NCBI GenBank assembly: GCA_963708135.1
Contig: OY970192.1
Coordinates: 3,072,001 to 3,136,000, forward strand
Origin: an uncultured Gemmatimonadales bacterium
GTDB lineage: Bacteria; Gemmatimonadota; Gemmatimonadetes; Longimicrobiales; RSA9
Direction of reading: 5' to 3'
Length of the DNA: 64,000 nt
Positions within the stretch are counted from its first letter, which is position 1, and each line of letters starts with the position of its first letter. Shown here one piece after another: positions 1 through 15,357 of this stretch. A program made the position numbers and the translations under genes. The notes beneath the pieces were generated by a model that saw only the letters and a list, made by a program, of their open reading frames with translations, had not been told where the DNA came from and searched no databases.

Positions 1-127
1 CGATACGAAGTTCTCTACAAAGAATAAGAAAAGGAGATAGTTGTGCTTAAGGTCTAACACTAGAGGAGTGATAAGAAGAGATGGCAGAGAAGAGGCTGAG
101 GGACTACAGGTGCAGACAGAACAAGGC

Positions 128-280
128 GGTTAACAAACGGTTGGCGCCTGCGCGGCCTGCGGCCGCTCCGGAGAACGCGCCGCGGCGGTCTAGAAGCTGG
201 TGAGGGATCGTGTAGTTTCGAAGGTGGTCGCGCGCTGAGGGTTATAGGCGCGGCGGGTCGCCAACCTGGAAACGTTATCT
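128..280 (+). other. attC site 1 (family I)
   Basis: GGTTAAC-aaacGGTTGGCG ... CGCCAACC-tggaaac-GTTATCT. Confidence 0.85.
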
Positions 281-327
281 GCCAGCCCTTGGGATGCTTG
301 AGGCATGTAAGATCCTTGAGGAGAGCC

Positions 328-772
328 ATGAAGACCTACGAGATTCACCGTCGTCATAGAGCGGGACGAAGATGGCCGATTTGTGAGCTATCGTGACTGC
401 GACTTTGCAGGGCTGCTACACGGAAGGCGATACGGAGCGAGAGGCTACGTGATCTGATTGAGGCGCGATCCGGCTTCACCTTGAGGATCGACTCGAGCGA
501 GGATGAGCAATCCACCAGGAGGTGGGCAGCACGAGGGTACGGATCGCGGTATGACGCGCCTGCCTTCCATGACCGCGCAGAAGATGGTGCGAGCTCTTGG
601 AGCGGCATGGCTTTGAGCGAGTTCGGCAATCAGGATCCACACCTCATCCTCCGCCACACGGTACGGACGCCGCGTCACCGTCCCCGTGCATAAGTCCAAG
701 GACCTCGGTCGCGAGTCTTCTAGAGCCGGATCAAGAAAGGTACGCGTACCTCTCGATAGAAGACCTCTAATA
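328..772 (+). pseudogene. Frameshifted copy of the HicB-HicA cassette at 8856-9292
   Basis: Near-identical DNA to 8856-9292 but with many single-base indels (decay or sequencing error). Confidence 0.8.
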
Positions 773-788
773 GGTCGAACGGGCCGGC

Positions 789-940
789 GTTTAACTAACG
801 TTTGGCGCCTGCGCGGCCTGCGGCCGCTCCGGAGAACCCGCCGCGGCCGCCGGGAAGCTGGTGCGTTTCGTAGAGGTTTCGAAGGTGATCGCGCGCTGGA
901 GGTTGTTGCGCGGCGGGTCGCTAACCTAGAAACGTTATGC
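789..940 (+). other. attC site 2 (family I)
   Basis: TTAAC ... CGCTAACC-tagaaac-GTTATGC; interior nearly identical to attC 14. Confidence 0.8.
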
Positions 941-980
941 GATCATTGCCTCGGGTTGGTGGTGCAGACGCCCTCGCCGG

Positions 981-1009
981 TTGTGATCATGTCAGGTATG
1001 ACATAGATT
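981..1009 (+). promoter_or_regulatory. Putative sigma70 promoter with operator palindrome
   Basis: TTGTGA-17 bp-TAGATT; ATGTCA-ggta-TGACAT inverted repeat in the spacer; GTG start at 1015. Confidence 0.55.
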
Positions 1010-1014
1010 GAACC

Positions 1015-1365
1015 GTGAGATCGAGCGAGAAGCCGCTGGTCTGGATGCATGGGGAGGTCAAGACGCCTCCCTTCAGCGTAGGCGCGCGAATCGAGGCCGG
1101 GGTCCTGTTGCGGCGACTACAGAACGGCGAAACGCTTGGGCTGCCGCACTCTCGACCGATGCCGGTGATCGGCTCCCAATGTCACGAACTACGGATTCGA
1201 GACGAGGATCACACGTGGCGGATCATTTACCGGATCGATCCCGATGCGATCGTGATCGCGGAGGTGTTCAGCAAGAAGACTCAGCAGACGCCCAGGGCCA
1301 CGATCGAGGTGTGCAAGAGGCGGCTGAAGGCGTACGATCGGATAGACGAGGAGCAGGATGGATAA
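1015..1365 (+). CDS. RelE/HigB-like toxin (phage Gp49-like)
   Basis: HSRPMPVIG..CHELRIRD...WRIIYRID motif; overlaps the downstream HTH gene. Confidence 0.8.
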   Translation: MRSSEKPLVWMHGEVKTPPFSVGARIEAGVLLRRLQNGETLGLPHSRPMPVIGSQCHELRIRDEDHTWRIIYRIDPDAIVIAEVFSKKTQQTPRATIEVCKRRLKAYDRIDEEQDG

Positions 1366-1804
1366 GGGAAAGAGGAAGAGGCTCGAGGCGGCTGGTTGGA
1401 AGGTTGGCTCTGCCGAGGAGTTCCTGAACCTCGACGACGCTGAGGCGGCGTTCGTCGCGCTCAAACTCCGCCTGAGCGAGGAGCTGCGGGAGCGGCGAAC
1501 GAAGGAGGGATTGTCGCAAGTCGAGCTGGCGAAGCGGATTGGTTCGAGTCAGTCCCGAGTTGCGAAGATGGAGGCGAGTGATCCCACAGTGTCCGTGGAT
1601 CTGCTCCTGAAGGGGTTGTTCGCGACGGGCGCGACCCAGGATGAAATTGGTGGAGCGATCGCGAAGGGTCGCCGAGGCGTGCAGGCACGGCAGGCGCCCG
1701 AGGCAACGCGGCATAACAAGACGGTTACCGCGGCGGCGCACCTGCGGTGCGCCTTGCCCTCCGCTTCGCTCCGGGACGCCTCGCCTTCGGCTCGGTGTCG
1801 GTAA
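1358..1804 (+). CDS. XRE-type HTH antitoxin; the C-terminus runs into attC 3, possibly through an indel
   Basis: GLSQVELAKRIGSSQSRVAKME HTH motif. Confidence 0.8.
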   Translation: MDKGKRKRLEAAGWKVGSAEEFLNLDDAEAAFVALKLRLSEELRERRTKEGLSQVELAKRIGSSQSRVAKMEASDPTVSVDLLLKGLFATGATQDEIGGAIAKGRRGVQARQAPEATRHNKTVTAAAHLRCALPSASLRDASPSARCR

Positions 1805-1820
1805 CGCTGAAACGTTATCC
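1711..1820 (+). other. attC site 3
   Basis: GCATAAC-aagacGGTTACCG ... CGGTAACG-ctgaaac-GTTATCC. Confidence 0.8.
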
Positions 1821-1886
1821 GGCATGTTCCAGGCAGCGCTTCTGTAGCAGATAGAGTTAGGGAGAACGCCGGACGAAGGAGGTCGC

Positions 1887-2380
1887 GTGTCGAAGGTTCC
1901 GATCAAGGAGCTGCTGGAGCTGTCGGTGGCAGAACGGATCAGCTCATATGACTGTGGGAGAGAGAGGTCGCTGACTCGGAGGGGGTCTCGATCAGTGAGG
2001 CTCAGTTGCAGGAAGCTCGGCGTGTATGGAGGAGCATTGTGCGGATCGGGCTCGCGATCTGGGAGCAGCTTCGGCGGGAGTTGTGAGAGAGATACGGATG
2101 AACGGGAGTTGATGTTGGTTTTGGCGCGTTGGATGTGCTGGAGGCGATAGAGTGGTACTCGGGTAGATAGAGATGGCGCTGAATTGTGCGAGTGCTTGAT
2201 GCTGCGTTGAATAGATTCAGCAGAATTGGCTTAGTTTCAGTGGTGGACGCTTGATTGGAAGCTGGTGCTCGTTCTACAAGATTGTTTACGGCTGACGAAC
2301 GAGAGATTGTGATTCTGTGGTTTTATGTGAGAGAGATAAGGCACTGGAGAGGTGGAAGTGAGGAGCTCAGGGTGAGGTTG
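1887..2380 (+). pseudogene. Degraded addiction-module antitoxin plus ParE/RelE-like toxin
   Basis: N-terminus VSKVPIKELLELSVAERI and downstream EIVILW fragment; frames broken. Confidence 0.5.
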
Positions 2381-2387
2381 AACACGC

Positions 2388-2526
2388 GGATAACAAACGG
2401 TTGGCGCTGCGCGGTTGCGGCGCTCGGAGAATGCGCAGCGTCTGGAAGCTGGTGAGGTGATGCAGTTTCGAAGGCATGGCGCGCTGAAGGTATGGCGCGG
2501 CGGATCGCTAACTGGAAACGTTATCG
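2388..2526 (+). other. attC site 4 (family I)
   Basis: GGATAAC-aaacGGTTGGCG ... CGCTAAC-tggaaac-GTTATCG. Confidence 0.8.
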
Positions 2527-2774
2527 GAATGCGCTGGTGCGCTGGGGAGTGAACCTCTTGTTCCCCTCCCCGCCCGGATCCAGCGGTTTCGCGGGACCGG
2601 TGCGATCGATGATCTTGGCACACCGGGTTCGGAGGCAGCAGCTGGTGAGGCGCTGGGCGCATGTTCCTGTATCCGCGGCGTCGAGAGCTCGGCCGGAGTC
2701 GAAGCGTTTGTCGGCGCTGAGTTCCGGGCCGCGCTCGCCTTCCGCTGGAGGCGGAGGGGCGCACTCCGGATAAC
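2520..2774 (+). ncRNA. Gene-less cassette, variant A, copy 1 (candidate structured RNA)
   Basis: No credible ORF; near-identical to 11001-11259 and 12078-12336; multiple stems. Confidence 0.55.
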
Positions 2775-2899
2775 AGAGCGGTGGCCGCTGCGCCGCCTTC
2801 AGCGGCTTGCCCGCCGGGTGAAGTGAAGTCGTAGGCTGAGAACACGGGCTGGCGGGACGCGGCGCTGGGGGCCGCGTCGGCAACCGCCAGACGTTATAG
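2768..2899 (+). other. attC site 5 (family III, belongs to gene-less cassettes)
   Basis: GGATAAC-agaGCGGTGGCCG ... CGGCAACCGC-cagac-GTTATAG. Confidence 0.85.
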
Positions 2900-2944
2900 G
2901 ACATTTTCCACGTTGGTCTCCCATCTGAGCAAGGAAAGTCATCG

Positions 2945-3736
2945 ATGGCTTTGAAACCCTGTCGCGAGTGCTCGCATAAGATCAGCACCGAGGCCAATTC
3001 ATGCCCGAATTGCGGAGCTAAAAATCCGACAGGATCGAGAATCTCCGCGAAACAGGGATGCCTCGGCTGCCTAGGACTAATCGTTCTTATGGTCATTATG
3101 ACGTCTCTAATCAATACGTGCGGGTCCGGTTCCACCCCGTCATCAAGCGTGATGTCGCACTCTAGAGTGAACCCGTCGGTCAATCCCGACAGTGTTTGGG
3201 CCGCCGGTAATGCCTCACAATTAGGCTCACTGTCTCGACGCGATTCAATGAGGTATGACCATATCACACGCACGACTGGCCTCACGCCAGCTGAGCCCAA
3301 ATTCCATGAACGCGTTGTCGCGATGCGAATTGCAGACGCGCGAGACGCGTCGAAGCGTCCTGAATCCAGGGGAGACGCGTTGACCTTCCTATCACTTGCA
3401 GACACTCCATTTACTTCCACACAATCCGCCGCGATCAAGTCTTTGCGCACATTGATATCGGCGTCTATAGATCGTGACACTAGGAAGGCGGGCATCCCGC
3501 TTCGCCGCGCCTATGCGGCGACGTTGAGAAACAAATTTCTCGACGACGCTCTTGATATTAAGGTTTCCGCACTCGGCGACGACGCGACTACGCTGAAACT
3601 TGAATTCGTCCTGTTCAATGACGTGTGGAGTCACAAGCTAGTAACCGGGGAGTTCCAGCAGTTGCTTCGCCAGATGGGATTCAAGCGGCTTCGGATGACG
3701 GACGGGTACGACTGGGGATACTACTGGGATCTATAG
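2945..3736 (+). CDS. Zinc-ribbon membrane protein/lipoprotein of unknown function (cassette cargo)
   Basis: CRECSH...CPNCG zinc ribbon followed by a hydrophobic segment; fills the cassette. Confidence 0.8.
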   Translation: MALKPCRECSHKISTEANSCPNCGAKNPTGSRISAKQGCLGCLGLIVLMVIMTSLINTCGSGSTPSSSVMSHSRVNPSVNPDSVWAAGNASQLGSLSRRDSMRYDHITRTTGLTPAEPKFHERVVAMRIADARDASKRPESRGDALTFLSLADTPFTSTQSAAIKSLRTLISASIDRDTRKAGIPLRRAYAATLRNKFLDDALDIKVSALGDDATTLKLEFVLFNDVWSHKLVTGEFQQLLRQMGFKRLRMTDGYDWGYYWDL

Positions 3737-3772
3737 CCGGCCACGCGAGACATTCGCACGATGGAAAACGTC

Positions 3773-3926
3773 CTATAACTGGACAATTGCCGCAGAGCCC
3801 GCCGGGATTGAGACCACGCGGCATTTAATAGGTAGGCCGGACGGGACATGACTCCGCTCAGGCGCGAGATCGCGTTGCTCACTCGCTTCCTCGCTGCGTC
3901 ACGTCGGCAATCGCTTAACGTTATCT
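3773..3926 (+). other. attC site 6
   Basis: CTATAAC ... ATTGCCG ... CGGCAAT ... GTTATCT. Confidence 0.75.
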
Positions 3927-4179
3927 GGAATGCGCTGGAGCGCTGAACAGCAATGATGTGCTCCGCCGCCCCGCCCCGGTTCCAGCGGCTTTGCGCTCGA
4001 GGTGCGATGGACGTTGACGGGCCGGGATGCGTCAGAGGAGGCAGGAGCTGGTGAGGCGCCGTGCGTCGGCCCCGCCGGTGCGGTTCGGCAGCGGGGCACG
4101 TGCAGGTCGCCGGCGGCGAGTTGCGACCGTTCCAGAGTGCACGGCTGTGGCAGGACGCGAGAGGCGCACTCCAGATAAC
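3920..4179 (+). ncRNA. Gene-less cassette, variant B, copy 1
   Basis: Only an 8-codon ORF at its start; essentially identical to 5847-6106; shares blocks with variant A. Confidence 0.55.
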
Positions 4180-4304
4180 GGAGCGGTGACCGCTTCGCCG
4201 CCTTCGGCGGCTCGCCCGCCGGGTGAAGTGAAGTCCAAGCCCGAAAAGATGGGCCGGCGGGACACGGCGCTGCGCGCCACGTCGGTAACCGAGAGACGTT
4301 ACGC
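4173..4304 (+). other. attC site 7 (family III)
   Basis: AGATAAC-ggagCGGTGACCG ... CGGTAACCG-agagac-GTTACGC. Confidence 0.85.
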
Positions 4305-4336
4305 GCCATACTGCGGGTGAAAAGTGGGGTCTTACA

Positions 4337-5038
4337 TTGAGCAACTGGTATCACCTGTACTGCGATGAGACGGGTATCGGGTCTGGACCGTCGTTCGATC
4401 TTGGTGCGCTCCAGATGTCGCCAGCACGAGCCCGGATCCTTGCGGAAGGGCTATTGCGGGTCCGTCACGAATACGGGCTCCGAGCCGAGATGAAGTGGAC
4501 GAAGGTATCTCTTGGGATGCTGGATGCGTACAAGGCCTTCGTGGATGTATTCCTGAACTGCCAGTACACGAGGCTCTATCACCTCAAAGTCCGCAAGCGC
4601 CACGATTGGACGGCGTTTGGCCGATCTGAGAATGCACGCTTCTTCAAGGCCTACTACGTTTTCCTGAGAATGCACATGCGGTCGCATTCGCGATATGTGG
4701 TGCAGGTGGATGACAAGCCAGGCAAGCGATATCGCTGGAGCCAGGTCTACTACGCCATCAACGCCGCGGCCGCTCGTGATTACGGAGTGACGCGGAAGCA
4801 GATTGCGGACTTCCGGCCGATGGATTCCAAGAGATCGGACCTGCTGCAGCTCGTGGATGTTGTGCTGGGTGCTATGACGTCGGTTGCTTCGGCCCCAGCG
4901 AAGCTGAATCTTCTCACCTATGTGCGGGATCGTGTTGCCTCAAGGGAGGCGGAGGTGAAGAGCGGCGAGTGGTCACCTACAGTGGTCGCCAAGTCCTCCT
5001 CGGCACTGGGAAGTCGTACGGCGCGTAACAAACGGTGA
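4337..5038 (+). CDS. DUF3800-family protein (cassette cargo)
   Basis: YCDETG N-terminal motif, EMKWTK, and DSKRSDLLQLVD C-terminal motif. Confidence 0.75.
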   Translation: MSNWYHLYCDETGIGSGPSFDLGALQMSPARARILAEGLLRVRHEYGLRAEMKWTKVSLGMLDAYKAFVDVFLNCQYTRLYHLKVRKRHDWTAFGRSENARFFKAYYVFLRMHMRSHSRYVVQVDDKPGKRYRWSQVYYAINAAAARDYGVTRKQIADFRPMDSKRSDLLQLVDVVLGAMTSVASAPAKLNLLTYVRDRVASREAEVKSGEWSPTVVAKSSSALGSRTARNKR

Positions 5039-5116
5039 GCGCCTGCGCAGCTCCGCTGCTTCGGCCCTGCGGGACACCCGCCTCCGGCGGGCGTCGCTCA
5101 CCTAAGAACGTTATCT
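5023..5116 (+). other. attC site 8 (family II)
   Basis: GCGTAAC-aaacGGTGAGCG ... CGCTCACC-taagaac-GTTATCT. Confidence 0.85.
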
Positions 5117-5149
5117 GACATGAGCCGCACGACGTGATTAGATTGGCGG

Positions 5150-5428
5150 ATGAGCCCGAGCGAGCGATTCGAGCGACCCGAGTGGTGGGAGTGGGAGCTC
5201 GCGTTCACGGCTCACGTCGAAGCACGCATGGAGGAGCGTGGATTCTCCGAGGTCGATCTGCGCGAGATGCTCGAGGATGCATTGGATCTGGAGCAGAGCC
5301 GGAATCCGAGGCGGTGGCTGGTCCGCACCCGCTCGGGCGGCGCGCCGTGGATCGTCGTGGTTGAGCCCGATCCTGATGAACAGGTGCTTCTGATCGTCAC
5401 CGCTTACCTTCGAGACGCCCGCCGATGA
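5150..5428 (+). CDS. DUF4258-like putative toxin
   Basis: FTAHVEARMEERG ... LLIVTAY; coupled to the next gene. Confidence 0.7.
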   Translation: MSPSERFERPEWWEWELAFTAHVEARMEERGFSEVDLREMLEDALDLEQSRNPRRWLVRTRSGGAPWIVVVEPDPDEQVLLIVTAYLRDARR

Positions 5429-5694
5429 AAACTCTCACCGTCCAAGTGACCTACCGCAAAGGCGAGCCCTTTGCCGCCTACATTTACCTGGCTGCGAAGC
5501 CGGGCCAGAAGAGTGCACGGACCGAAGACGTCAGTCCCGACCTCGTCATCGACTACGCGGCCGATGGCACCCCGCTCGGGATTGAAATCGTTTCGCCGGG
5601 ATTCGTCACCCTCGACGAAATCCACGCCGTCTTCGACCGACTCGGCCTGGGACGCCCGGAACCATCGGAATTGGCGCCGCTCAGGGCGGCCTGA
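5425..5694 (+). CDS. DUF2283-like putative antitoxin
   Basis: AAYIYL ... VIDYAADGTPLGIEI motif; ATGA overlap. Confidence 0.75.
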   Translation: MKTLTVQVTYRKGEPFAAYIYLAAKPGQKSARTEDVSPDLVIDYAADGTPLGIEIVSPGFVTLDEIHAVFDRLGLGRPEPSELAPLRAA

Positions 5695-5735
5695 CTTCCC
5701 CAGCGGGTGGGCCAGCCCCGGCAGCGGCTCACATC

Positions 5736-5853
5736 AGATAACAAACGGTGAGCGCCTGCGCGGCTTCGCCGCTCCGGCCCTTCGGGACACCGAATCCTCA
5801 GCGCCGCGCTGCGGCGCCTCCGGTTCGGCGTCGCTCACCTACAAGCGTTATCT
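5736..5853 (+). other. attC site 9 (family II)
   Basis: AGATAAC-aaacGGTGAGCG ... CGCTCACC-tacaagc-GTTATCT. Confidence 0.85.
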
Positions 5854-6106
5854 GGAATGCGCTGGAGCGCTGAACAGCAATGATGTGCTCCGCCGCCCCG
5901 CCCCGGTTCCAGCGGCTTTGCGCTCGCGGTGCGATGGACGTTGACGGGCCGGGATGCGTCAGAGGAGGCAGGAGCTGGTGAGGCGCCGTGCGTCGGCCCC
6001 GCCGGTGCGGTTCGGCAGCGGGGCACGTGCAGGTCGCCGGCGGCGAGTTGCGACCGTTCCAGAGTGCACGGCTGTGGCAGGACGCGAGAGGCGCACTCCA
6101 GATAAC
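5847..6106 (+). ncRNA. Gene-less cassette, variant B, copy 2
   Basis: Duplicate of 3920-4179. Confidence 0.55.
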
Positions 6107-6231
6107 GGAGCGGTGACCGCTTCGCCGCCTTCGGCGGCTCGCCCGCCGGGTGAAGTGAAGTCCAAGCCCGAAAAGATGGGCCGGCGGGACACGGCGCTGC
6201 GCGCCACGTCGGTAACCGAGAGACGTTATGT
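6100..6231 (+). other. attC site 10 (family III)
   Basis: Identical interior to attC 7. Confidence 0.85.
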
Positions 6232-6283
6232 GAAATCGCCCGGAGGCCGCTGAACCCGCTGCGGTTGAGAGACCCCACCTGAC

Positions 6284-6312
6284 TTGTCGTAGCATGGGTG
6301 CCGTGCTATCAT
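6284..6312 (+). promoter_or_regulatory. Putative promoter/operator of higBA
   Basis: TTGTCG-17 bp-TATCAT; TAGCATGG...CCGTGCTA inverted repeat; ATG at 6318. Confidence 0.6.
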
Positions 6313-6317
6313 GCTAG

Positions 6318-6611
6318 ATGATTCGATCATTCCGGGATGCGGCGACCGAGGATCTGTTCTACGGTCGTTCGACGAAGGCAGCTCGGAAAGCGCTTCCACT
6401 GTCGCTGTGGCAGAAGGCGTCGGTGAAGCTCGATGCGGTCGACTCGGCCGGGATGTTGGACGACCTACGAGTTCCGCCAGGGAATCGATTGGAAGCCTTG
6501 AAGGGAGATCGTCGCGGTCAGCACAGCATCCGAATCAACAGCCAGTACCGGATCTGTTTTCGATGGACGGACGCAGGACCGGAAGACGTAGAAGTCGTCG
6601 ACTACCATTGA
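6318..6611 (+). CDS. higB: HigB toxin (plasmid maintenance killer family)
   Basis: PPGNRLEALKGDRRGQHSIRINSQYRICF...VVDYH. Confidence 0.92.
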   Translation: MIRSFRDAATEDLFYGRSTKAARKALPLSLWQKASVKLDAVDSAGMLDDLRVPPGNRLEALKGDRRGQHSIRINSQYRICFRWTDAGPEDVEVVDYH

Positions 6612-6619
6612 GGCATACT

Positions 6620-6946
6620 ATGGTCCGAGTACCGACCCATCGCCGACCGACGCACCCGGGGGAGATGCTCCTCGAGGAGTTTCTCGGCCCGATGGAGCTG
6701 ACGCAGCGGGAGCTTGCCGACGCGATCGCAGTCCCGTATCAGCGGGTCAACGAGATCGTGAACGGACGACGGGGAGTGACCCCGAGCACTGCACTGCGGC
6801 TATCGACCTACTTCGGCACGTCGACGGACTTCTGGATGAACCTTCAGCTGCGATGGGATCTGTACCACGCTCGAGAGGCCGAGGCCGACATCTTGAAGAA
6901 GATTCCTCGATACAAGTCTTCGAATCGCGACAGAGTAGGCGGATAG
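6620..6946 (+). CDS. higA: HigA antitoxin
   Basis: PTHPGEMLLEEFL ... FWMNLQLRWDL. Confidence 0.92.
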   Translation: MVRVPTHRRPTHPGEMLLEEFLGPMELTQRELADAIAVPYQRVNEIVNGRRGVTPSTALRLSTYFGTSTDFWMNLQLRWDLYHAREAEADILKKIPRYKSSNRDRVGG

Positions 6947-6977
6947 CACGATTGAAGCCGGGCAGAGGGGCGACTTC

Positions 6978-7073
6978 ACATAACACACGGTGAGCGGCTA
7001 AGCGGCGTTCGCCGCTACGCCCCTACGGGACACCCCCCATGCGGCGGGCGTCGCTCACCTGGAAACGTTAGAA
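6978..7073 (+). other. attC site 11 (family II)
   Basis: ACATAAC-acacGGTGAGCG ... CGCTCACC-tggaaac-GTTAGAA. Confidence 0.85.
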
Positions 7074-7152
7074 GACATGCCGGGTTGACGGGCGGTGGTA
7101 CTGAGTACTATAGTACGGAGGACGTTGAAGCCGGGAGGCTCGTATCGAATTC

Positions 7153-7473
7153 GTGGCAACCCGCAGCTTCGAGAGCTCCGCGAAGAAGCTCCTGTCCGAA
7201 GAGGACCGGAGGCAGCTTGAGTTGCTCCTGCTGGGAGATCCACGACATGGCAAGGTGATTGAGCGCACTGGCGGTTTCCGGAAGGTGCGCTTCGCTCGAC
7301 CCAGCCGGCGTGAAGGGAAGAGCGGCGGTACTCGGGTGATCTACTATCTCCTCGATCGACGTGACCGGATCTACCTGCTCCTCGTGTACGCGAAGGGGGT
7401 GAAGGACACCCTCACCCGCACCGAGGAGAACGAACTTCGGAAGCTGGCAAAGGCATTGGAGGAAGAACGGTGA
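7153..7473 (+). CDS. RelE/HigB-2-like toxin (start uncertain)
   Basis: GKVIERTGGFRKVRF...GKSGGTRVIYY...LLLVYAK. Confidence 0.85.
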   Translation: MATRSFESSAKKLLSEEDRRQLELLLLGDPRHGKVIERTGGFRKVRFARPSRREGKSGGTRVIYYLLDRRDRIYLLLVYAKGVKDTLTRTEENELRKLAKALEEER

Positions 7474-7850
7474 CCAAGGCACGGAGGAAGGGTACGTTCG
7501 GGCAGGTGCTCATCGAGTCCGCAAGAGAGGCGGTGCAGATCGAGCGCGGTGAGGCACCCCCGGCTCGTGTCACCAAGCACACGGCTGCGGAAACGAGGGT
7601 GGCACCTCCGCCTCAATACGTGCCGGAACGTATCAAGGGAATCCGGGATGTCATGGCATTGTCCCAGCCTGTCTTCGCTGCGGCCTTGAATGTGAGTCCA
7701 GAGACAGTCCGCGCTTGGGAACAGGGGAAGAGGGAACCCGACGGCCCTACGCTTCGACTCCTCGAGGTAGCGGAGCAGCACCCCGAGGTGCTCCTTACAA
7801 AAGTGCGGGCCCGAAGGTCGAGGAAACGGCCCAGCGCCGAGATCCGGTAA
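7470..7850 (+). CDS. HTH antitoxin (HigA-2-like)
   Basis: LSQPVFAAALNVSPETVRAWEQGKREPDG. Confidence 0.85.
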   Translation: MTKARRKGTFGQVLIESAREAVQIERGEAPPARVTKHTAAETRVAPPPQYVPERIKGIRDVMALSQPVFAAALNVSPETVRAWEQGKREPDGPTLRLLEVAEQHPEVLLTKVRARRSRKRPSAEIR

Positions 7851-7892
7851 CGTGCCTTGGAATGACGCGGTCAGCGTCATGGCCGGCACGTC

Positions 7893-8007
7893 TTCTAACA
7901 CACGGTGAGCGCCTGCGCGGCTTCGCTCCGGCCCTTCGGGACACCGAATCCTCAGCGCCGCGTTGCGGCGCCACCGGTTCGGCGTCGCTCACCTGGAAAC
8001 GTTATGT
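7893..8007 (+). other. attC site 12 (family II)
   Basis: TTCTAAC ... GGTGAGCG ... CGCTCACC ... GTTATGT. Confidence 0.85.
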
Positions 8008-8038
8008 GAAATGGCGCTGGCGTTGGTAGATTGAGAGC

Positions 8039-8326
8039 ATGAGCAACGAACTGAGGCAGCTCCAGGAGCGGATCACCCCCAAGCTGCGTGAGCACGGCGT
8101 CGTCAAAGCCGCCGTGTTCGGCTCCCGCGCTCGCGGGGATGCCGGACCCGAGAGCGATCTCGATCTCCTGGTCGAGTTCGAGAAAGGTCGAACGCTCCTG
8201 GACCTCATCGGCCTTGAGCAGGATCTCACGGAGCTGCTCGGGACCGAGACGGAGGTGGTCACCTACCGATCGCTGCATCCGCTCCTGCGGGAGCGAATCC
8301 TCGCCGACCAGGTGCCGCTCCTGTGA
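8039..8326 (+). CDS. Minimal nucleotidyltransferase (MNT/MntA-like antitoxin)
   Basis: VFGSRARGD...SDLDLLVEF. Confidence 0.9.
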   Translation: MSNELRQLQERITPKLREHGVVKAAVFGSRARGDAGPESDLDLLVEFEKGRTLLDLIGLEQDLTELLGTETEVVTYRSLHPLLRERILADQVPLL

Positions 8327-8667
8327 AGGATCCGGACGTCTTACCCTATCTCGCTCATGTCCTCGAGAGCATCGAGGCGATCGAACGGTACACGCGCGGG
8401 ATGGAGGCGGCGGCATTCCTCAACGATTCCCAAGCACAGGATGCCGTCGTTCGGCGCCTCGAGATCATCGGCGAGGCTGTGAAGAACGTCGGCCCGGAGT
8501 TCCGGGCGGCGCATCCAGAGATTCCGTGGAAGCGTATCGCCGGACTTCGAGACGTCCTAATTCACCGCTACTTCGAGGTGGATCTTGAACTGACGTGGGA
8601 GACGGTTCAAGAGCGGCTCCCGACGTTCAAACAACAGGTCCAGGCGCTTCTCCAGCAGTTGGGCTGA
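8323..8667 (+). CDS. HEPN/DUF86 RNase toxin (HepT-like)
   Basis: IPWKRIAGLRDVLIHRYF (RxxxxH motif). Confidence 0.9.
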   Translation: MKDPDVLPYLAHVLESIEAIERYTRGMEAAAFLNDSQAQDAVVRRLEIIGEAVKNVGPEFRAAHPEIPWKRIAGLRDVLIHRYFEVDLELTWETVQERLPTFKQQVQALLQQLG

Positions 8668-8686
8668 ACCCGGACGGCGCCACTTC

Positions 8687-8804
8687 ACATAACAACCGGT
8701 GAGCGCCTTCGCGGCTTCGCCGCTCCGGCCCTTCGGGACACCGAATCCTCAGCGCCGCGATGCGGCGCCTCCGGTTCGGCGTCGCTCACCTAGAAACGTT
8801 ATCC
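8687..8804 (+). other. attC site 13 (family II)
   Basis: ACATAAC ... GGTGAGCG ... CGCTCACC-tagaaac-GTTATCC. Confidence 0.85.
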
Positions 8805-8855
8805 GCCAGCCCTTGGGATGCTATCTTGTAGGCATCAAGATCCTTGAGGAGCGCC

Positions 8856-9077
8856 ATGAAGACCTACGAGTTCACCGTCGTCATCGAGCGGGACGAAGAT
8901 GGCCGATTTGTGGCTATCGTACCCGCTTTGCAGGGCTGCTACACGGAAGGCGAAACGGAGCGAGAGGCTCGGGATCTCATCGAGGACGCGATCCGGCTTC
9001 ACCTTGAGGATCGACTCGAGCGAGGAGAAGCAATCCACCAGGAGGTGGGCAGCACGAGGGTACGGATCGCGGTATGA
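8856..9077 (+). CDS. hicB: HicB-family antitoxin (short)
   Basis: VIERDEDGRFVAIVPALQGCYTEGET. Confidence 0.88.
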   Translation: MKTYEFTVVIERDEDGRFVAIVPALQGCYTEGETEREARDLIEDAIRLHLEDRLERGEAIHQEVGSTRVRIAV

Positions 9078-9292
9078 ACCCGCGCCTGCCTTCCATGACC
9101 GCGCCAGAAGTGGTGCGGCTCCTGGAGCGGCATGGCTTTGAGCGAGTTCGGCAATCAGGATCCCACCTCATCCTCCGCCACACGGACGGACGCCGCGTCA
9201 CCGTCCCCGTGCATAAGTCCAAGGACCTCGGTCGCGGTCTTCTGAGCCGGATCATGAAGGACGCGGACCTCTCGATAGAAGACCTCAAATAG
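9074..9292 (+). CDS. hicA: HicA-family toxin
   Basis: GFERVRQSGSHLIL...VTVPVH. Confidence 0.88.
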   Translation: MNPRLPSMTAPEVVRLLERHGFERVRQSGSHLILRHTDGRRVTVPVHKSKDLGRGLLSRIMKDADLSIEDLK

Positions 9293-9446
9293 GTCGAACG
9301 GGCCGGCGGATAACAAACGGTTGGCGCCTGCGCGGCCTGCGGCCGCTCCGGAGAACCCGCCGCGGCCGCCTGGAAGCTGGTGCGGTTCGTGAGGTTTCGA
9401 AGGTGATCGCGCGCTGGAGGTTGTTGCGCGGCGGGTCGCCAACCTA

Positions 9447-10617
9447 GTGTAGTGTCTGCCAATTGAGTTGATTTAACAAGACTCCGAGCGTACTGCGGTG
9501 AGCGCCTCGCGTGCACGCTGGATCTTGCGCAAGATGTCCTCGCCTTTGGCTCGCCACCGGTACGGCTTGGGATGGAGCTTTCGTTCGGCCAAGTAGCTCT
9601 CGATGTCACTCACCAGCTCGCGTACGCTGGAGAAGCTGCCCTCCCGAATCACGTCCTGCGTCAGCTCTCCGAAGAAGCGCTCGACGAGATTCAACCAGGA
9701 CGAGCTGGTCGGCGTGAAGTGAAGGTGGAAGCGCGGATGCTTCGCAAGCCACTGGGTTACGCTCTCTTGCTTGTGCGTGCAGTAATTGTCCACGACGAGG
9801 TGTAGATCGAGATCCTTGGGCGTCTCCCGATCGATCTGCTTGAGGAAGCGAAGCCACTCGACGTGCGTGTGACGCTCTTCCGTGCGCGCGATCAATTTGC
9901 CGTCGAGGTAGTTCAGTGCAGCAAACAGCGTGATGGTGCCGTGGCGGGTGTAGTCGTGGGTCTTGGTGCGAATCTCCCCGACGCCGAGGGGTAAGCCCGG
10001 TTGGGTGCGCTCCAAGGCCTGGCACTGGCTCTTCTCGTCACAACACAGGACCAGCGCCCTCTCGGGCGGATCGAGATACAGCCCGATCACGTCCCAGAAC
10101 TTCTCCTCGAAGCGCGGATCGTTCGACAGCTTGAACGTCTGCGTCAGGTGCGGCTTGATCTCGTTTGCCCGCCAGATCCGGTGCACGCTGTCCGGCGAGA
10201 TCCCGACCTCACGGGCCATTGTGCGCACACTCCAACGCGTGCACGGCTTGGGCGGCCGAGTCGCCCGCGTGATGACCTGCTCCACCTTGTGCGCCGGGAT
10301 CGAGGGGCGCCGGCCCCGTCCTTTTCGATCCTTCAGGCCGTCCAGGCCTTCGCGCTCGAAGCGTTGGGACCACTTGTTGACGCACGCGGCGCTCACGCCC
10401 AGCTCCCGCGCCACCTGCACCTGGCCGAGACCGCGCCCGCGCCGCAGCACGATGGCGGCACGAAGGCTGTCGCGCTTGGACACGCTGGGCGCCTTCACAC
10501 GCCGCTCAAGCTCTTGCCGTTCGGCGTCGGTGATCTCGATCTTGGACACAGGTCGCGCCATGGCGCAAGGATACGCCCGGCGCCTCCTTGTGTCAAGCTA
10601 TTTGTCGGACGCTACAC
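9447..10617 (-). mobile_element. IS630-family insertion sequence
   Basis: Imperfect terminal inverted repeats GTGTAG(T/C)GTC(T/C)G(C/A)CAA; TA duplication in a CTAG target. Confidence 0.92.
9473..10561 (-). CDS. IS630 transposase
   Basis: HTH plus CCDEKSQ, VVDNY and WLNLVERFF DDE motifs. Confidence 0.95.
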   Translation of the reverse strand: MARPVSKIEITDAERQELERRVKAPSVSKRDSLRAAIVLRRGRGLGQVQVARELGVSAACVNKWSQRFEREGLDGLKDRKGRGRRPSIPAHKVEQVITRATRPPKPCTRWSVRTMAREVGISPDSVHRIWRANEIKPHLTQTFKLSNDPRFEEKFWDVIGLYLDPPERALVLCCDEKSQCQALERTQPGLPLGVGEIRTKTHDYTRHGTITLFAALNYLDGKLIARTEERHTHVEWLRFLKQIDRETPKDLDLHLVVDNYCTHKQESVTQWLAKHPRFHLHFTPTSSSWLNLVERFFGELTQDVIREGSFSSVRELVSDIESYLAERKLHPKPYRWRAKGEDILRKIQRAREALTAVRSESC

Positions 10618-10624
10618 TAGAAAC

Positions 10625-10889
10625 GTTATCCGGAATGCGCTGGTGCGCTGAAGAGCAAGCGTGGGTGCCCCCCCTGCCACCCCGAGCCGGCGGTTTTTGC
10701 GCTCGCGGGCGTAGTGGACAATCGCGGCCGGGAGACTTCGCTGGACAGGGTGCTGGTCGGGCCGCCATGCGCTGCCAAGCCCGCTCGAGGAGTCGGTGTG
10801 CCAGGCAGGCGCCGCGCTGCTGGTGAGGCCGGTGCGGTTTCGAAGGAGCGCATGGCTGCTGCCGGCCGGGGGGGCGCACTCCGGATAAC
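10625..10889 (+). ncRNA. Gene-less cassette, variant C
   Basis: Same termini (GTTATCCGGAATGCGCTGGTGCGCTG ... GCGCACTCCGGATAAC) and GCTGGTGAGGC block as variants A and B; divergent interior. Confidence 0.5.
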
Positions 10890-11007
10890 AGCGCGGTGAC
10901 CGCTGCGCCGCCTTGCCCGCCCGAAAGCGTGCAGGGACTGTGATCAGGAACTTGGGCCGGCGGGACACGGCGCTGCGCGCCGCGTCGGGCACCGCTGAAC
11001 GTTATCC
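10883..11007 (+). other. attC site 15 (family III)
   Basis: GGATAAC-agcGCGGTGACCG ... CGGGCACCGC-tgaac-GTTATCC. Confidence 0.85.
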
Positions 11008-11259
11008 GGAATGCGCTGGCGCGCTGGGGAGTGAACCTGTTGTTCCCCTCCCCGCCCCGGATCCAGCGGTTTCGCGGGACCGGTGCAATCGATGATCCTG
11101 GCACACCGGGTTCGCGAGGCAGCAGCTGGTGAGGCGCCGGGCGCATTGTTCCTGTATCCGCGGCGTCGAGAGCCCGGCCGGAGTCGAAGCGTTTGTCGGC
11201 GCTGAGTTCCGGGCCGCGCCCGCCTTCCGCTGGAGGCGGAGGGGCGCACTCCGGATAAC
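11001..11259 (+). ncRNA. Gene-less cassette, variant A, copy 2
   Basis: Near-identical to 12078-12336. Confidence 0.55.
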
Positions 11260-11384
11260 AGAGCGGTGGCCGCTGCGCCGCCTTCAGCGGCTTGCCCGCC
11301 GGGTGGAGTGAAGTCGTAGGCCGAGAACACGGGCCGGCGGGACGCGGCGCTGGGCGCCGCGTCGGCAACCGCCAGACGTTAAGT
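11253..11384 (+). other. attC site 16 (family III)
   Basis: Near-identical to attC 5 and attC 18. Confidence 0.85.
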
Positions 11385-11444
11385 GCCATCACGTGGGTTC
11401 GCCTCATGCATTAGATTGGGGCGGTTACCAACGGGAGGACTTCG

Positions 11445-11651
11445 ATGAAGTATCGGGTGCTAATCGAGCAGGACGAGGACGGGTTCTTCGTGGCCGAGGT
11501 GCCGGCGCTCCCAGGGTGTGTGAGCCAGGGTGAGACTCGGCAGGAGGCGCTTGAGAACATCCGAGAGGCGATCGCGGGCTATCTGGAGAGCCTCGAGGAT
11601 CACCAGGAACCGGTGCCTCCCTCGATTCACGAGGAGATCGTGGAGGTCTAG
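11445..11651 (+). CDS. hicB: HicB-family antitoxin (short)
   Basis: IEQDEDGFFVAEVPALPGCVSQGETRQEALENIREAI. Confidence 0.9.
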   Translation: MKYRVLIEQDEDGFFVAEVPALPGCVSQGETRQEALENIREAIAGYLESLEDHQEPVPPSIHEEIVEV

Positions 11652-11876
11652 GTGGCCGAACTGCCAGTCGTCTCAGGACGCGAGGCAGTGAAGGCGTTCG
11701 GCAGGATCGGTTACGTTGTCGATCGCCAGCGAGGAAGTCACATCATACTGAGACAGGCGGAACCCCCTCATCGCCGCCTGACGATTCCGGACCACAAAGA
11801 GCTGCGGAAGGGAACGCTGCGGGCGTTGATCCGACAGGGTGGGTTGTCGGTGGACGAGTTCTTGGCGTTGCTGTAG
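11652..11876 (+). CDS. hicA: HicA-family toxin
   Basis: DRQRGSHIIL...LTIPDHKELRKGTLRALIRQ. Confidence 0.9.
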   Translation: MAELPVVSGREAVKAFGRIGYVVDRQRGSHIILRQAEPPHRRLTIPDHKELRKGTLRALIRQGGLSVDEFLALL

Positions 11877-11931
11877 GAACAGCAGAACCGCCCGTTCGGT
11901 CAGCGCCCTGGAGCTGGCTGGTCGTGACGGC

Positions 11932-12084
11932 ACTTAACAAACGGTTGGCGCCTGCGCGGCCTGCGGCCGCTCCGGGGAACCCGCCGCGGCCGTGACTAGA
12001 AGCTGGGGAGATCAGGGTAGTTTCGAAGGTGATCTCGGGCTGGAGGTATCGGCGCGGCGGGTCGCCAACCTGGAAACGTTATCC
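11932..12084 (+). other. attC site 17 (family I)
   Basis: ACTTAAC-aaacGGTTGGCG ... CGCCAACC-tggaaac-GTTATCC. Confidence 0.85.
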
Positions 12085-12336
12085 GGAATGCGCTGGTGCG
12101 CTGGGGAGTGAACCTCTTGTTCCCCTCCCCGCCCCGGATCCAGCGGTTTCGCGGGACCGGTGCAATCGATGATCCTGGCACACCGGGTTCGCGAGGCAGC
12201 AGCTGGTGAGGCGCCGGGCGCATCGTTCCTGTATCCGCGGCGTCGAGAGCCCGGCCGGAGTCGAAGCGTTTGTCGGCGCTGAGTTCCGGGCCGCGCCCGC
12301 CTTCCGCTGGAGGCGGAGGGGCGCACTCCGGATAAC
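12078..12336 (+). ncRNA. Gene-less cassette, variant A, copy 3
   Basis: Only a 7-codon ORF at its start; at least six predicted stems. Confidence 0.55.
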
Positions 12337-12461
12337 AGAGCGGTGGCCGCTGCGCCGCCTTCAGCGGCTTGCCCGCCGGGTGAAGTGAAGTCGTAGGCTG
12401 AGAACACGGGCCGGCGGGACGCGGCGCTGGGGGCCGCGTCGGCAACCGCCAGACGTTATCC
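12330..12461 (+). other. attC site 18 (family III)
   Basis: Near-identical to attC 5 and attC 16. Confidence 0.85.
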
Positions 12462-12645
12462 GAAAGCAGCCGCGGATACGCTATGAACGAAAGCATCGAT
12501 CTGATCGAGGGCGTGGTCATTGCGTATTCCGGTCATTCCGGCCATCGACTCCGGTCGAAGCCGGCCACCCGTTCCGGTGGCAAGCCGGCCGCTGATTCCG
12601 GAGCATTCCGGCCACCCGCCTCGGAGCGAAGCGACGCTGGTGCTT

Positions 12646-13275
12646 TCAGGCTGCGGCCTCGGTGTCTGCGTGTCGTTTCTTCGATCGTCGCATAGAAGCT
12701 CCTTTCAGGGTGATTCTGTGGGCGTTGTGGACGAGGCGGTCCAGGATGGCGTCGGCGAATGTGGCGTCTCCCACGACGTCGTGCCAGTGGTCGAAGGGGA
12801 GCTGACTGGTCACGAGGGTGGCGCGGCTGCCGTAGCGGTCCTCGAGGACTTCGAGCAAGTCCGTGCGTTCGTAGTCCTTCAGGGGCGCGAGGCCGAAGTC
12901 GTCCAGGATCAGCAGTTGGGCCTTGGCCAGGCGCTCGAGGAGCTTGGCATAGGAGCCGTCGGCGCGGGCCAGGGCGAGTTCTCCGAGCAGGCGTGAGAAG
13001 CGGTAGTAGCGCGTGGACAGACCCTGCCGGCAGGCGCTGTGGCCGAGGGCGCACGCGAGATAGCTCTTGCCGTTCCCGGTGGCACCGGAGATCAGCACGT
13101 TCTCGTGGTCGCGGATCCACTGGCAGCCGGCCAGCCGGAGGACGAGGCCGCGCTCGAGGCCGCGAGGGCTGCGGAAGTCGATGTCCTCGGGCACGGCCGG
13201 CAAGCGGAGCTTGGCCATTTGCAGGAGCCGCGTGAGGCGGCGGTCCTCGCGGAAGGTGATCTCGCGCTCGAGAAG
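12646..13275 (-). pseudogene. istB: IstB ATPase lacking its N-terminus
   Basis: GATGNGKS Walker A, LLILDDFG, ADAILDRLVH; fused directly to the istA remnant. Confidence 0.85.
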
Positions 13276-13970
13276 GGGTTCAGATCCGGCTCGTAGTAGC
13301 AGGCATGCTTGACACCGGTCCTCAGATTGTCGGGCACGATCAGACGCATCACGCCGCCGAAGTAGGCGAACATGCGCACGTGCGCCCCGACCCACTGGGG
13401 CAGCTCCTGGCTCCAGCAGGCCTCCGCGTAGGTGAAGTTGCTGGCGCCGAGCACGCCCACGAAGATCTCGGCCGCGCGGATCTCGCCGGTCGTGCGGTTG
13501 ACCACCGGGACGGTCTGGCCGGCGAAGTCCACGAAGACCTTCTCGCCGGGCACGTGCTCCTGGCGCAGGACCAGGTCCAGACGTCCCCGCCACCGGCGGT
13601 AGAGCTCACAGAACTGGCTGTACTGCAGCCCGTCCGGCTCGCGCTCCTTGTACTCGACCCAGAGAAGCTGCAGCGTCACGCCGGTGCGCTTGCGCGCCTT
13701 CAGCTCGCGGTGCACTTCGGCCCAGTCCGGCAGTGGCCGCGCGATGCTGGACGGCCGCGGCAAGGGGAAGAGCAGCCCTTGGAGCTGCGCATCCGTCCAG
13801 CCAGGCGGCAGCGGCCACGAGATCCCGGCCGCCTCGGCGCGCCTGAGGTACTCCGCCACCGTGCTGCGCGCGATCCCCAGGCTGCGCGCGATCGCTCGAT
13901 TGCTCTGGCCCGCGGCCTTCAGCCGCAGGACCTCCTTGGTCTTGCGCATGGACAACCTTTCCGCCGCCAT
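13276..13970 (-). pseudogene. istA: IstA transposase, N-terminal part only
   Basis: MAAERLSMRKTKEVLRL...FVDFAG...IVPDNL; breaks off after YEPDLNP. Confidence 0.85.
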
Positions 13971-14603
13971 CTCGCCTCCGGGTTCGAGAGAACTCGGCAG
14001 GAAAGTGACGGCCGGACGGATTCAGGTCATCCAGCGCCGCTTACGCTCCGCAGGGGGTGGCCGGAATGCTCCGGAATACCCGGCCGGCATGCTCCGGAAT
14101 CGGTGGCCGGCTTCGACCGGAATCGGTGGCCGGCTTGGGCCGGAATACGCAGGTCATCAAGGGTGGCGGAGGGGCCACCAAGAACCTCCGTCCGATTGAA
14201 GACCTGATCGCGGCTCGGAGTGGGCTGCCCTCGGTCTGTGAAGGCACTTTCAACGTGGGGTTAGAGGAACACTACCCTTTGCTCGCCGTCACAGGTGTGA
14301 TTTCCAACGATGAGTATGCCCATCACCAAGAGTGCATCAAGCTCAGGCGCTGCCGGGTTCGTATGGCGGGGTCCGCCGGAGCTGGGTTTCGCGGTGTGAT
14401 CGTGCGGCCCAGTCAGCATGAGGTTCCCGGGCGGCCCTACTGGCTCCGACTCGAAGTGATGTCCCCGCACAAGCTCCGCGATACTCTTGCAGCAGGGGAC
14501 GGCGATGTAGTGGTCGTAGAAATTGAGCAACCGGCCGCTGTGAATGAGGAATGGTGGAATAGGGCAGAGTCCCTTTAGTCAAGGCGTAGGAGCGGCTGCC
14601 CTC

Positions 14604-14758
14604 GGATAACAAACGGTCGGCGCCTGCGCTCGCTTCGCGAGCTCCGGAGAACCCGCCGTAGCCGTGACAAGAAGCTGGTGAGGTCGGTGTCGTTTCGAAT
14701 TGTGATTCCCGCGCTCAAGGCTGCGGCGCGGCGGGTCGCCAACCTGGAGACGTTATCC
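14604..14758 (+). other. attC site 19 (family I)
   Basis: GGATAAC-aaacGGTCGGCG ... CGCCAACC-tggagac-GTTATCC. Confidence 0.85.
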
Positions 14759-14774
14759 GGCATCCGCTTCAGAG

Positions 14775-15259: not shown

Positions 15260-15357
15260 CGATCCTCCTTGGGAGGAGATGATACCCGTGCCGGGGTGGG
15301 CAGTTCAAGGAGAGCGTGGGTGTCGTGGAGCGAGAGGTTCCGGGTTTGCGGGCCGGC

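Follow-up and report, generated by a model that had tools for sequence, protein, structure and literature searches.

Non-coding cassettes are a known component of integron arrays. In the Vibrio arrays described by Boucher et al. (2006, PMC1382264), 6–49% of cassettes were non-coding, with one family of 45 copies, and in the consulted sections of that paper the authors offered either a selfish element or a regulatory role for them. Promoter activity has been described, in the consulted parts of two further papers, for the majority of the gene-less cassettes assayed from four Vibrio superintegrons (Blanco et al. 2024, PMC11014356) and for some of those of Treponema (Tansirichaiya et al. 2019, PMC6557892); the latter paper also cites sRNA-Xcc1, a trans-acting small RNA from a cassette of Xanthomonas campestris that lacks an open reading frame (ORF). 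Integrons have in addition been reported from the phylum Gemmatimonadota (PMC8618304, consulted in part). Here, we describe a family of ORF-less cassettes that came to attention in a 64,000-nt stretch of the genome of an uncultured Gemmatimonadales bacterium (GenBank assembly GCA_963708135.1, contig OY970192.1, positions 3,072,001 to 3,136,000 of the forward strand; G000:C1:3072001-3136000), hereafter called the window.

Compared with the Vibrio cassettes of PMC1382264, as presented in the consulted sections, this family is alike in lacking an ORF, in having many paralogues per array, and in that homologues are either very close or absent. It differs in its G+C content of 69–73%, in a far more diverged interior (44–55% identity) between conserved ends, in a recombinase that lacks the IntI-specific domain, and in that no homologue was found outside this genome. 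With the promoter-bearing cassettes of Vibrio and Treponema (PMC11014356 and PMC6557892, both consulted in part) it has in common the absence of a gene, an attC site of its own and, in some cases, the first slot of the array, whereas an in-silico scan placed no promoter-like site in the copies, and the high G+C content and tandem runs set it further apart. The small RNA sRNA-Xcc1, as cited in PMC6557892, provides a precedent for a cassette-borne RNA gene, but here there was neither an Rfam match nor a supported fold. An earlier note on the window had not recognised these cassettes as a described family; this holds for the sequence family, while paralogous non-coding cassettes as a kind are described in the consulted parts of the three papers above.

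Our preferred reading, to which we give a probability of roughly 0.55, is that these are ORF-less and largely selfish mini-cassettes, in which the outer 16 nt form the arms of an extended R stem of the recombination site and the interior is mainly a length-constrained spacer.

Copies of the cassette and their place in the array

Six copies in the window had been listed in the earlier note, as variants A (2520, 11001 and 12078), B (3920 and 5847) and C (10625). All six were recovered by a repeat finder and by alignment, and the listed common start, CCRGCGGYTT, GCTGGTGAGG and end motifs are evident in the alignment. Matches to the start motif GGAATGCGCTGGNGCGCTG in the window number six (2526, 3927, 5854, 10632, 11008 and 12085), all of them on the + strand, against a chance expectation of 0.24; none of 100 shuffles got to six. 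The length of ~255–265 bp originally given for the whole cassette had to be corrected: the unit is a cassette of ~376 bp (357–378 bp), composed of an ORF-less body of 256–266 nt and its own attC site of ~130 nt (about 116–135 nt).

The copies in the window, all on the + strand, are A1 (2520–2892; body 2520–2774, attC about 2768–2899), B1 (3920–4297; body 3920–4179, attC about 4173–4304), B2 (5847–6224; body 5847–6106), the most diverged variant C1 (10625–11000; body 10625–10889), A2 in tandem behind C1 (11001–11377; body 11001–11259), and A3 (12078–12454; body 12078–12336). B2 is 100% identical to B1 over 300 nt, and the 259-nt body of A3 is 100% identical to that of copy A0, upstream of the window. 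A1 has four 1-nt deletions relative to A2 and A3, one of them inside the R' box.

In the whole genome there are 13 copies of five variants, all on the + strand and all inside one array (0/13 outside). Seven of them closely precede the window, in the stretch that immediately follows the recombinase gene, and bring in variant D (four copies) and a degenerate B'. R' sites (..ACGTTA..) divide the array, which covers ~25 kb from genome position 3067981 to 3092865 (about −4019 to 20865 in window numbering), into 30 cassettes; the family accounts for 13 of these (43% of slots) and not, as first estimated, for a quarter. Every one of the 13 copies starts at the GTTA of the upstream site, be it attI or one of at least four attC types, and 12 are closed by an ACGTTA of their own. 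The exception, D4 (genome 3071154–3071530), has lost its R' box, with CGCGAAAAAACCGCC where CGCGAAACGTTAT is expected, and is hence fused to the next cassette. The copies are thus ORF-less integron cassettes: bounded on both sides by the crossover (G|TTRRRY), with a single attC at the 3' end, in an array of one orientation, and with no protein gene.

Slots 1 and 2 behind attI hold the identical copies D1 and D2, and seven of the first eight slots belong to the family. Tandem neighbours upstream are different variants (A0-B0-D3-B'-D4), and near-identical copies are dispersed, separated by other variants. Family cassettes are the smallest of the array (357–378 bp, versus at least 660 bp for all others), and each run of copies is followed by a coding cassette. 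The cargo of the non-family cassettes is typical for sedentary integrons, with five toxin-antitoxin pairs among 15 ORFs scanned (Gp49-like/HTH, DUF4258/DUF2283, RelE/HTH, MNT/HepT and HicB/HicA), besides DUF3800 and a zinc-ribbon protein.

Several further observations concern the array itself. Many 1-nt deletions mark copies B' (genome 3070797) and A1, as a result of either decay or assembly errors. The cassettes at window 272–932 and 8796–9460 are paralogous (e.g. 464–554 versus 8987–9077, 98% identical), the former appearing full of frame-breaking 1-nt differences. In a public contig of the source run, a roughly 98% identical variant, window 917–1805 is joined to 8793–9132 through two attC R' sites separated by 4 other letters, which suggests either that cassette order varies within the sampled population or that the contig is chimeric. 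An IS630-like insertion sequence (IS) occupies window 9445–10620 (transposase ORF 9473–10561, − strand, DDE_3 with HTH domains; inverted ends GTGTAGTGTCTGCCAA / GTGTAGCGTCCGACAA, identified by eye only) and was apparently inserted at a TA of the L'-R' spacer in the type-1 attC ahead of C1, splitting that site.

The recombinase and the extended R stem

A canonical attC site has the order R''-L''...L'-R', with a 7-bp R box (RYYYAAC/GTTRRRY) and extrahelical bases, and it is the bottom strand that is recombined in integrons. The enzyme encoded here is a tyrosine recombinase of 343 residues (genome 3066828–3067859, L015:1003-2034, + strand), whose gene lies a short way upstream of the window and shares the strand of the cassettes; 120 nt separate the end of this gene from the first GTTAT, an attI-like junction, after which the 30 cassettes follow. 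It contains Phage_integrase and SAM-like domains, and scores 216.9 bits against the integron integrase model TIGR02249, under the cut-off of 265 and in two stretches, and 225.5 against NF040815 (XerA/integron integrase), above the cut-off of 220. The alignment with VchIntIA (PDB 2a3v) falls into two pieces, with 24 residues (237–260) where that chain has 66 (174–239), a stretch that we take to be the location of the IntI-specific domain, while Xer-type recombinases (4a8e, 5hxy) align in one piece. About 70 N-terminal residues lie outside the Xer and IntI models. By these alignments, the recombinase lacks the IntI-specific domain.

The locus therefore departs from canonical IntI integrons in domain content and model score, and also in its layout, as the recombinase gene is co-oriented with the cassettes and not divergent; co-oriented ('inverted') integrons exist. 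Of 40 other genomes of the family, 19 encode recombinase homologues with 39–65% identity, a tally that includes the unpublished genomes G015 and G016. The homologue in G012 is likewise co-oriented with an array, and cassette arrays lie downstream of the homologue in five further genomes.

The arms that close each body are part of the recombination site. The first 16 nt of the cassette (GTTATCYGGAATGCGC) pair with the 16 nt that end in R'' of its own attC (GCGCACTCCRGATAAC), with a single mismatch at position 11. In A3, the 3' arm of this extended R stem is the cassette's start at 12078–12093 (GTTATCCGGAATGCGC), with the conserved A at position 11, and the 5' arm lies at 12321–12336 (GCGCACTCCGGATAAC), with C opposite; the 3' arm is present in every copy. 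We then searched each of the 30 cassettes for R'', defined as a perfect reverse-complementary match, close to the 3' end, to its first 7 nt, and found it in 24. At position 11, an A in the start faces a C in the R'' arm in 21 of these 24 (11 family and 10 other-family cassettes); on the top strand this pair is A.C, on the bottom strand G.T. The pattern of 10 matched nucleotides, the mismatch, and at least 3 further matched nucleotides is uninterrupted in 19 of the 21 (11 family, 8 other); in cassettes 16 and 26, position 10 is mismatched as well and 8 matched nucleotides follow, and cassette 27 matches poorly.

Cassette starts across the array follow GTTA NNN G NN A, and the complementarity reaches 14–22 nt into the cassette. 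From position 12 onward the sequence varies by cassette (TGCGC, TGCCGG, TTTTCCA, TAC, TGAGCCGC, TCGCCC, TGGCGC, TCACG, GCAGCCGC), and each version is matched by its own R'' arm, a genuine covariation across unrelated cassettes. The R'' arm matches the start of its own cassette over a mean of 14.1 nt, against a mean of 5.8 nt for the start of the next cassette at the 18 junctions other than those between two members. The starts (e.g. GTTATGTGAAAT) may also resemble the XerD arm of dif.

The same stem was found beyond this genome. In the regions downstream of homologous recombinases in five related genomes (G035, G027, G004, G387 and G009; loci L208, L209, L210, L211 and L212), where only the first 10 nt were required to be complementary, position 11 is mismatched in all 24 start/R'' pairs found, always as A (start) against C (arm), and complementarity resumes for 2–11 nt in 23 of them. 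A cruder look at G012 identified an exact R'' in 2 of 10 cassettes, both with the pattern. As a separate observation from these loci, L209 2000–2440 (G027) and L211 8809–9249 (G387) have nearly the same cassette start (GTTATCTGAAACCCCT..) and the same start-to-R'' distance of 440 nt, which hints at the exchange of a cassette between two genera of the family.

Since the pattern is also seen in other-family cassettes (10/21) and in related genomes (24/24), the closing stem is identified as the extended R stem of the recombination site of this integron type and not as a feature specific to the family. It resembles canonical attC in the crossover at G|TT, in the completion of R' by the cassette's own start in the circular form, and in an asymmetry that marks the bottom strand; it differs in a complementarity of 14–22 nt instead of 7, and in the conserved A/C (top) or G.T (bottom) at position 11. 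G-U pairs had been taken earlier as favouring a + strand RNA. We found the opposite: the sole position of the closing stem with a conserved non-Watson–Crick pair shows A.C when read on the + strand and G.T/G.U when read on the − strand, and the conserved wobble thus favours the bottom DNA strand and not a + strand RNA. A miniature inverted-repeat transposable element, or another transposon-derived repeat, was considered and rejected, given that the apparent terminal inverted repeat is the R'/R'' stem common to coding cassettes and that 0/13 copies lie outside the array.

We also predicted the folding of bottom-strand single-stranded DNA with DNA parameters. In the circular form (R'' arm, attC and own start), the predicted R-stem probability is 0.96 for the family (n = 11) and 0.85 for other cassettes (n = 13). 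In the array form, where the start of the next cassette serves as partner, it is 0.66 for the family versus 0.19 for the others, and it reaches 0.81–0.98 at the six member-to-member junctions.

Coding, folding and regulatory potential of the bodies

Between lineages, the 5' 27 nt of the bodies are 81–100% identical and the last 20 nt 85–100%, with 53–83% for the attC, while interiors share 44–55% identity between lineages A, B/D and C (78% between B and D). Body length is kept at 256–266 nt despite this interior divergence. The + strand frames of A, B and D have one or two stops each, and no + frame is open across all variants; the only stop-free ones, frame 1 of B' and frame 0 of C, are not common to the variants. 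Open frames are present on the − strand, as expected at 70% G+C, and which frames are open differs among variants. In seven pairwise comparisons of variants, 43 of 43 indel runs have a length that is not a multiple of 3, and substitutions between variant pairs show no three-base periodicity. No Pfam match (E ≤ 0.1) was obtained for the seven ORFs overlapping copies, and a − strand ORF compared with 5.8 billion proteins had as its sole relative another copy in the same genome. The frame, indel and Pfam tests thus bear out the initial impression that the copies contain no credible ORF.

We consider it most improbable that the bodies encode a small protein or peptide, whether on the − strand or, for instance, starting at the conserved GTG of GCTGGTGAGG that follows GAGG. 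A Shine–Dalgarno-like GAGG/GGAGG does stand 8–9 nt upstream of this GTG in both A and B, at or near which ORFs begin that are 60 aa long in A and 97–99 aa long in B, and long open frames exist on the − strand. However, the 3'-end frame read from the GTG is not the same in A/C as in B/D, the Arg-rich peptides are unrelated to one another, and the GTG-started ORFs extend into the attC and beyond, in addition to the indel, periodicity, Pfam and database results just given.

The bodies had been described as highly structured, which our tests support for the closing stem only, and read as a selected multi-arm element, possibly an RNA, with conserved linkers between variable stems, which they do not support. 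Rfam returned no match at the gathering score across the whole window and nothing in any copy at E ≤ 1; the only match at E ≤ 1 was RcsR1 (E = 0.25) at 8482–8581, outside the copies. Relative to dinucleotide shuffles, whole bodies gave folding z-scores of −1.2 to −4.6. After removal of the closing-stem arms, the interiors (~221–231 nt) gave −0.41, −0.15, +0.83, +0.95 and +1.64 on the + strand and −1.01, +1.55, +0.32, +1.36 and +1.08 on the − strand, and so folded no better than shuffles in 10/10 variant/strand tests (z −1.0 to +1.6). The fold stability of whole bodies is therefore attributable to the closing stem alone, as the signal was gone once its arms were removed. The five arms drawn for variant A do appear in its minimum-energy fold, but its interior z is −0.41 and the arms are not kept in B, C and D, which fold differently in these models; the arms of A look like a chance product of G+C-rich composition.

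Comparative tests gave a similar picture. RNAalifold proposed ten helices on six sequences, and in its consensus on the same alignment 95% of cells are paired. When interior columns were shuffled and refolded (100 shuffles), the consensus energy on the + strand was −35.9 versus −36.0 ± 4.3 (z 0.03), and on the − strand −27.2 versus −23.8 ± 4.0 (z −0.86). Compensatory pairs numbered 16 versus 11.6 ± 2.8 on the + strand, with 9 of 100 shuffles reaching 16, and 8 versus 8.5 on the − strand; these covariation tests have low power because there are about three independent lineages only (A, B/D and C). In single-sequence ensembles, computed for both strands with RNA and DNA parameters, the closing stem alone was robust (mean pair probability 0.73–0.99). 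Other consensus helices mostly had near-zero pairing probability, with the exceptions of H5 (B, B'), H9 (B'), H10 (B), H8 (D) and H4/H7/H8 (C). The apparent RNA-like folding is, by these models, mostly an effect of high G+C content, and a general caution follows: at 70% G+C, arms drawn by eye and 'compensatory' pairs from RNAalifold appear at chance level.

A functional non-coding RNA could still act through short conserved sequence blocks of a transcribed + strand body and not through a conserved fold; transcription might, for instance, read through into the body from the co-oriented recombinase gene or from the promoters of toxin-antitoxin cassettes, and the C-rich tract might serve as an anti-Shine–Dalgarno element. 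Besides the Xanthomonas precedent, known to us from its citation in PMC6557892, such a role would agree with short blocks kept among otherwise diverged variants, with the single orientation of all copies, which is that of the cassette genes, and with compensatory changes in some RNAalifold helices (e.g. columns 142–150 with 233–242). We nevertheless regard it as unlikely, given the negative Rfam search, interiors that fold no better than shuffles, with a consensus fold no better than that of column-shuffled alignments, consensus helices mostly missing from single-sequence ensembles, a stem wobble that favours the − strand, no promoter-like or terminator-like site inside the copies, and no homologue in the other searched genomes to show selection. 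A look-up of sequencing runs that contain the stretch listed one DNA run and no RNA run.

The in-silico scan, itself weak evidence, found neither sigma-70-like nor terminator-like sites inside the copies. Window positions 1–13000 contain 4 sigma-70-like sites (shuffles 2.0 ± 1.3), all at the starts of coding cassettes or in the IS. These results bear on the possibility that the bodies drive or modulate expression of the cassette behind them, as gene-less cassettes do in Vibrio and Treponema. A coding cassette does follow each run of copies, but bodies of this G+C content have no A+T-rich stretch, five tandem copies make little sense as promoters, and several downstream cassettes are toxin-antitoxin pairs. 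Such pairs usually bring their own promoter. For cassettes of this kind, in-silico promoter calls are reportedly unreliable (PMC11014356, consulted in part), and the promoter activity of most tested Vibrio cassettes and some Treponema ones also counts in favour of this role; on balance, we judge it rather improbable here.

Probable spread within the array

We found no homologue of the body outside this genome in the searches run, which relied on exact words or about ≥70% identity and which diverged relatives could escape. BLAST in 60 relatives gave short matches only, within query positions 204–385 and with no more than 26 nt inside the body; among 400 genomes of the class, the best foreign match was 58 nt at 81% (both tallies include the unpublished G019, G073, G397 and G076). 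A pattern scan of genome contigs with the closing-stem halves (18 fixed bases) was too loose to be informative, with at least 119 loci; the family profile matched none of these at E ≤ 1 among the matches listed, with a single match at E 6.4. A pattern scan of metagenome contigs gave 5 loci and 0 profile matches at E ≤ 10, and the loci listed by the two scans are taken as chance hits. In the arrays and recombinase regions of relatives (L185–L212), the profile matched this genome's own copies only. The collection of homologues from related genomes envisaged in the earlier note therefore yielded no real body homologue.

That note had also proposed a gene-less cassette spread by the integrase and had named a selfish cassette among possible roles. 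The boundary at the attC crossover and the spread within the array stand, the selected structured RNA does not, and the selfish role is the one that we adopt. We favour selfish mini-cassettes because exact boundaries occur behind different neighbours and the attI-proximal slots are held by identical copies; because the family takes seven of the first eight slots, with near-identical copies interleaved and of minimal size; and because conserved ends surround a drifting interior of fixed length, with a predicted folding advantage in tandem.

From integron biology and the DNA folding predictions, the following mechanism may be proposed. The unit would be excised by the recombinase through attC × attC recombination at G|TT. 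In the resulting circle of ~376 nt, its own start would pair with the R'' arm into a 16–17-bp R stem that carries the G.T wobble on the recombining (bottom) strand. The circle would then re-insert, preferentially at attI, and with the donor copy kept by replication the copy number would rise. In tandem, the next copy would supply the matching arm, so that the sites of tandem members would stay correctly folded in the array and could be excised more easily than other cassettes. Apart from a few short conserved blocks, the interior would act largely as a spacer under length constraint.

Several observations weigh against selfish mini-cassettes. Spread of the copies by site-specific recombination is deduced from their placement. 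Where the upstream neighbour is not a family member, the predicted minimum-energy fold of either strand closes the body by a 16-bp stem, and both flanking attC sites lose their R boxes in it; by out-competing these boxes, such a fold could hinder excision. Within the RNAalifold consensus, 17 pairs are changed on both sides, versus 8.4 ± 1.8 in within-pair shuffles (0/500). We do not take this as support for an RNA, because the consensus structure was derived from the same 6 sequences as were tested and because the signal is gone in the column-shuffle control. The copy number rests on one single-contig metagenome assembly with many 1-nt differences between paralogues, and most copies have no coverage in the public contigs of the source run, which neither confirm nor refute this number. 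Finally, conservation exceeds the expectation for a neutral spacer in some short interior blocks, namely GGNGCGCTG, the C-rich tract with CCRGCGGYTT, and AGCTGGTGAGGCGCCG, and of the genome matches to AGCTGGTG[AC]G, 18 of 52 on the + strand fall in the 25-kb array, versus 1 of 45 on the − strand.

The last of these points concerns a block that also occurs outside the bodies. In A3, the conserved interior block AGCTGGTGAGGCGCCG lies at 12201–12216 (+ strand), and its core AGCTGGTG starts at 2640, 4046, 5973 and 11124 in four other copies; GCTGGTGAGG starts at 10819 in C1 (all + strand). A 10–11-nt core of this block is also found in the centre of type-1 attC sites. Over their bodies A, B and D have just a 12–14-nt block in common with type-1 attC, and when similarity was scored in both orientations only variant C stood out (z 2.7–3.7, same orientation), its 3' part having 28 nt (GCTGGTGAGG..GTTTCGAAGG) in common with the type-1 centre. 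All 7 genome occurrences of GTTTCGAAGG are inside the array. A type-1 attC site with both motifs (AGCTGGTGAAGG and GGTTTCGAAGG) is present in another genus. The conserved central module of these long type-1 attC sites consists of AGCTGGTGAGG, about 9 nt, and GTTTCGAAGG, in a normally variable part of the site (window 186–230, 852–890, 2445–2475, 9370–9405, 11996–12030 and 15420–15455; L211 about 5900–6030). A Chi-like role for GCTGGTGAGG was tried and dropped, its 16 + strand and 12 − strand matches outside the array being unremarkable by a rough composition estimate. Ideas of sigma-54, G-quadruplex and Rho sites, weighed by eye only, were set aside as well.

Such blocks might be accessory binding sites of a DNA-level integron helper, with AGCTGGTGAGG as the candidate, in which case the cassettes would be recombination enhancers, decoys or insulators rather than purely parasitic and the putative binder would be a host factor or the ~70-residue N-terminal part of the recombinase. 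The motif is enriched in the array in a strand-specific manner and turns up in two element types that are not otherwise related; together with the motif-bearing type-1 centre kept in another genus and the N-terminal extension outside the Xer and IntI models (matches begin at residue 69–83), this speaks for the idea. We hold it to be doubtful, as the occurrences amount to only two or three independent ones, the copies within each element type being homologous, variant C is without the block at the common position, and the motif is absent, by reading, from the attI region.

A further alternative is that repeat mis-assembly in the metagenome-derived genome inflated the copy number and the tandem runs. 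The single-contig origin, the many 1-nt deletions of A1 and B', such as long-read errors would give, and the copies left uncovered by public contigs would fit this. Yet neighbouring copies are different variants (A0-B0-D3-B'-D4), and copies lie between different unique cassettes, which is not the product of collapse or expansion of one repeat; we see very little likelihood of an artefact on this scale.

Selfish mini-cassettes may be part of a wider, more speculative picture, to which we give limited credence: the copies would be the minimal self-propagating unit of a distinct integron-like system, with a co-oriented Xer-type recombinase without the IntI domain, a cassette-specific R stem of 14–22 bp, the bottom-strand G.T at position 11 as a strand mark, AGCTGGTGAGG as an accessory site, and folding in tandem by which the family out-replicates coding cassettes. 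The system is in any case the more unusual level of this locus, combining an extended cassette-specific R stem that has a bottom-strand wobble with a recombinase without the IntI insert. The IntI-specific domain is thought to read the extrahelical bases of attC. This array therefore presents a testable case of strand choice and site folding without that insert and, with a gene-less family in 43% of its slots, a testable case of competition between selfish and cargo cassettes.

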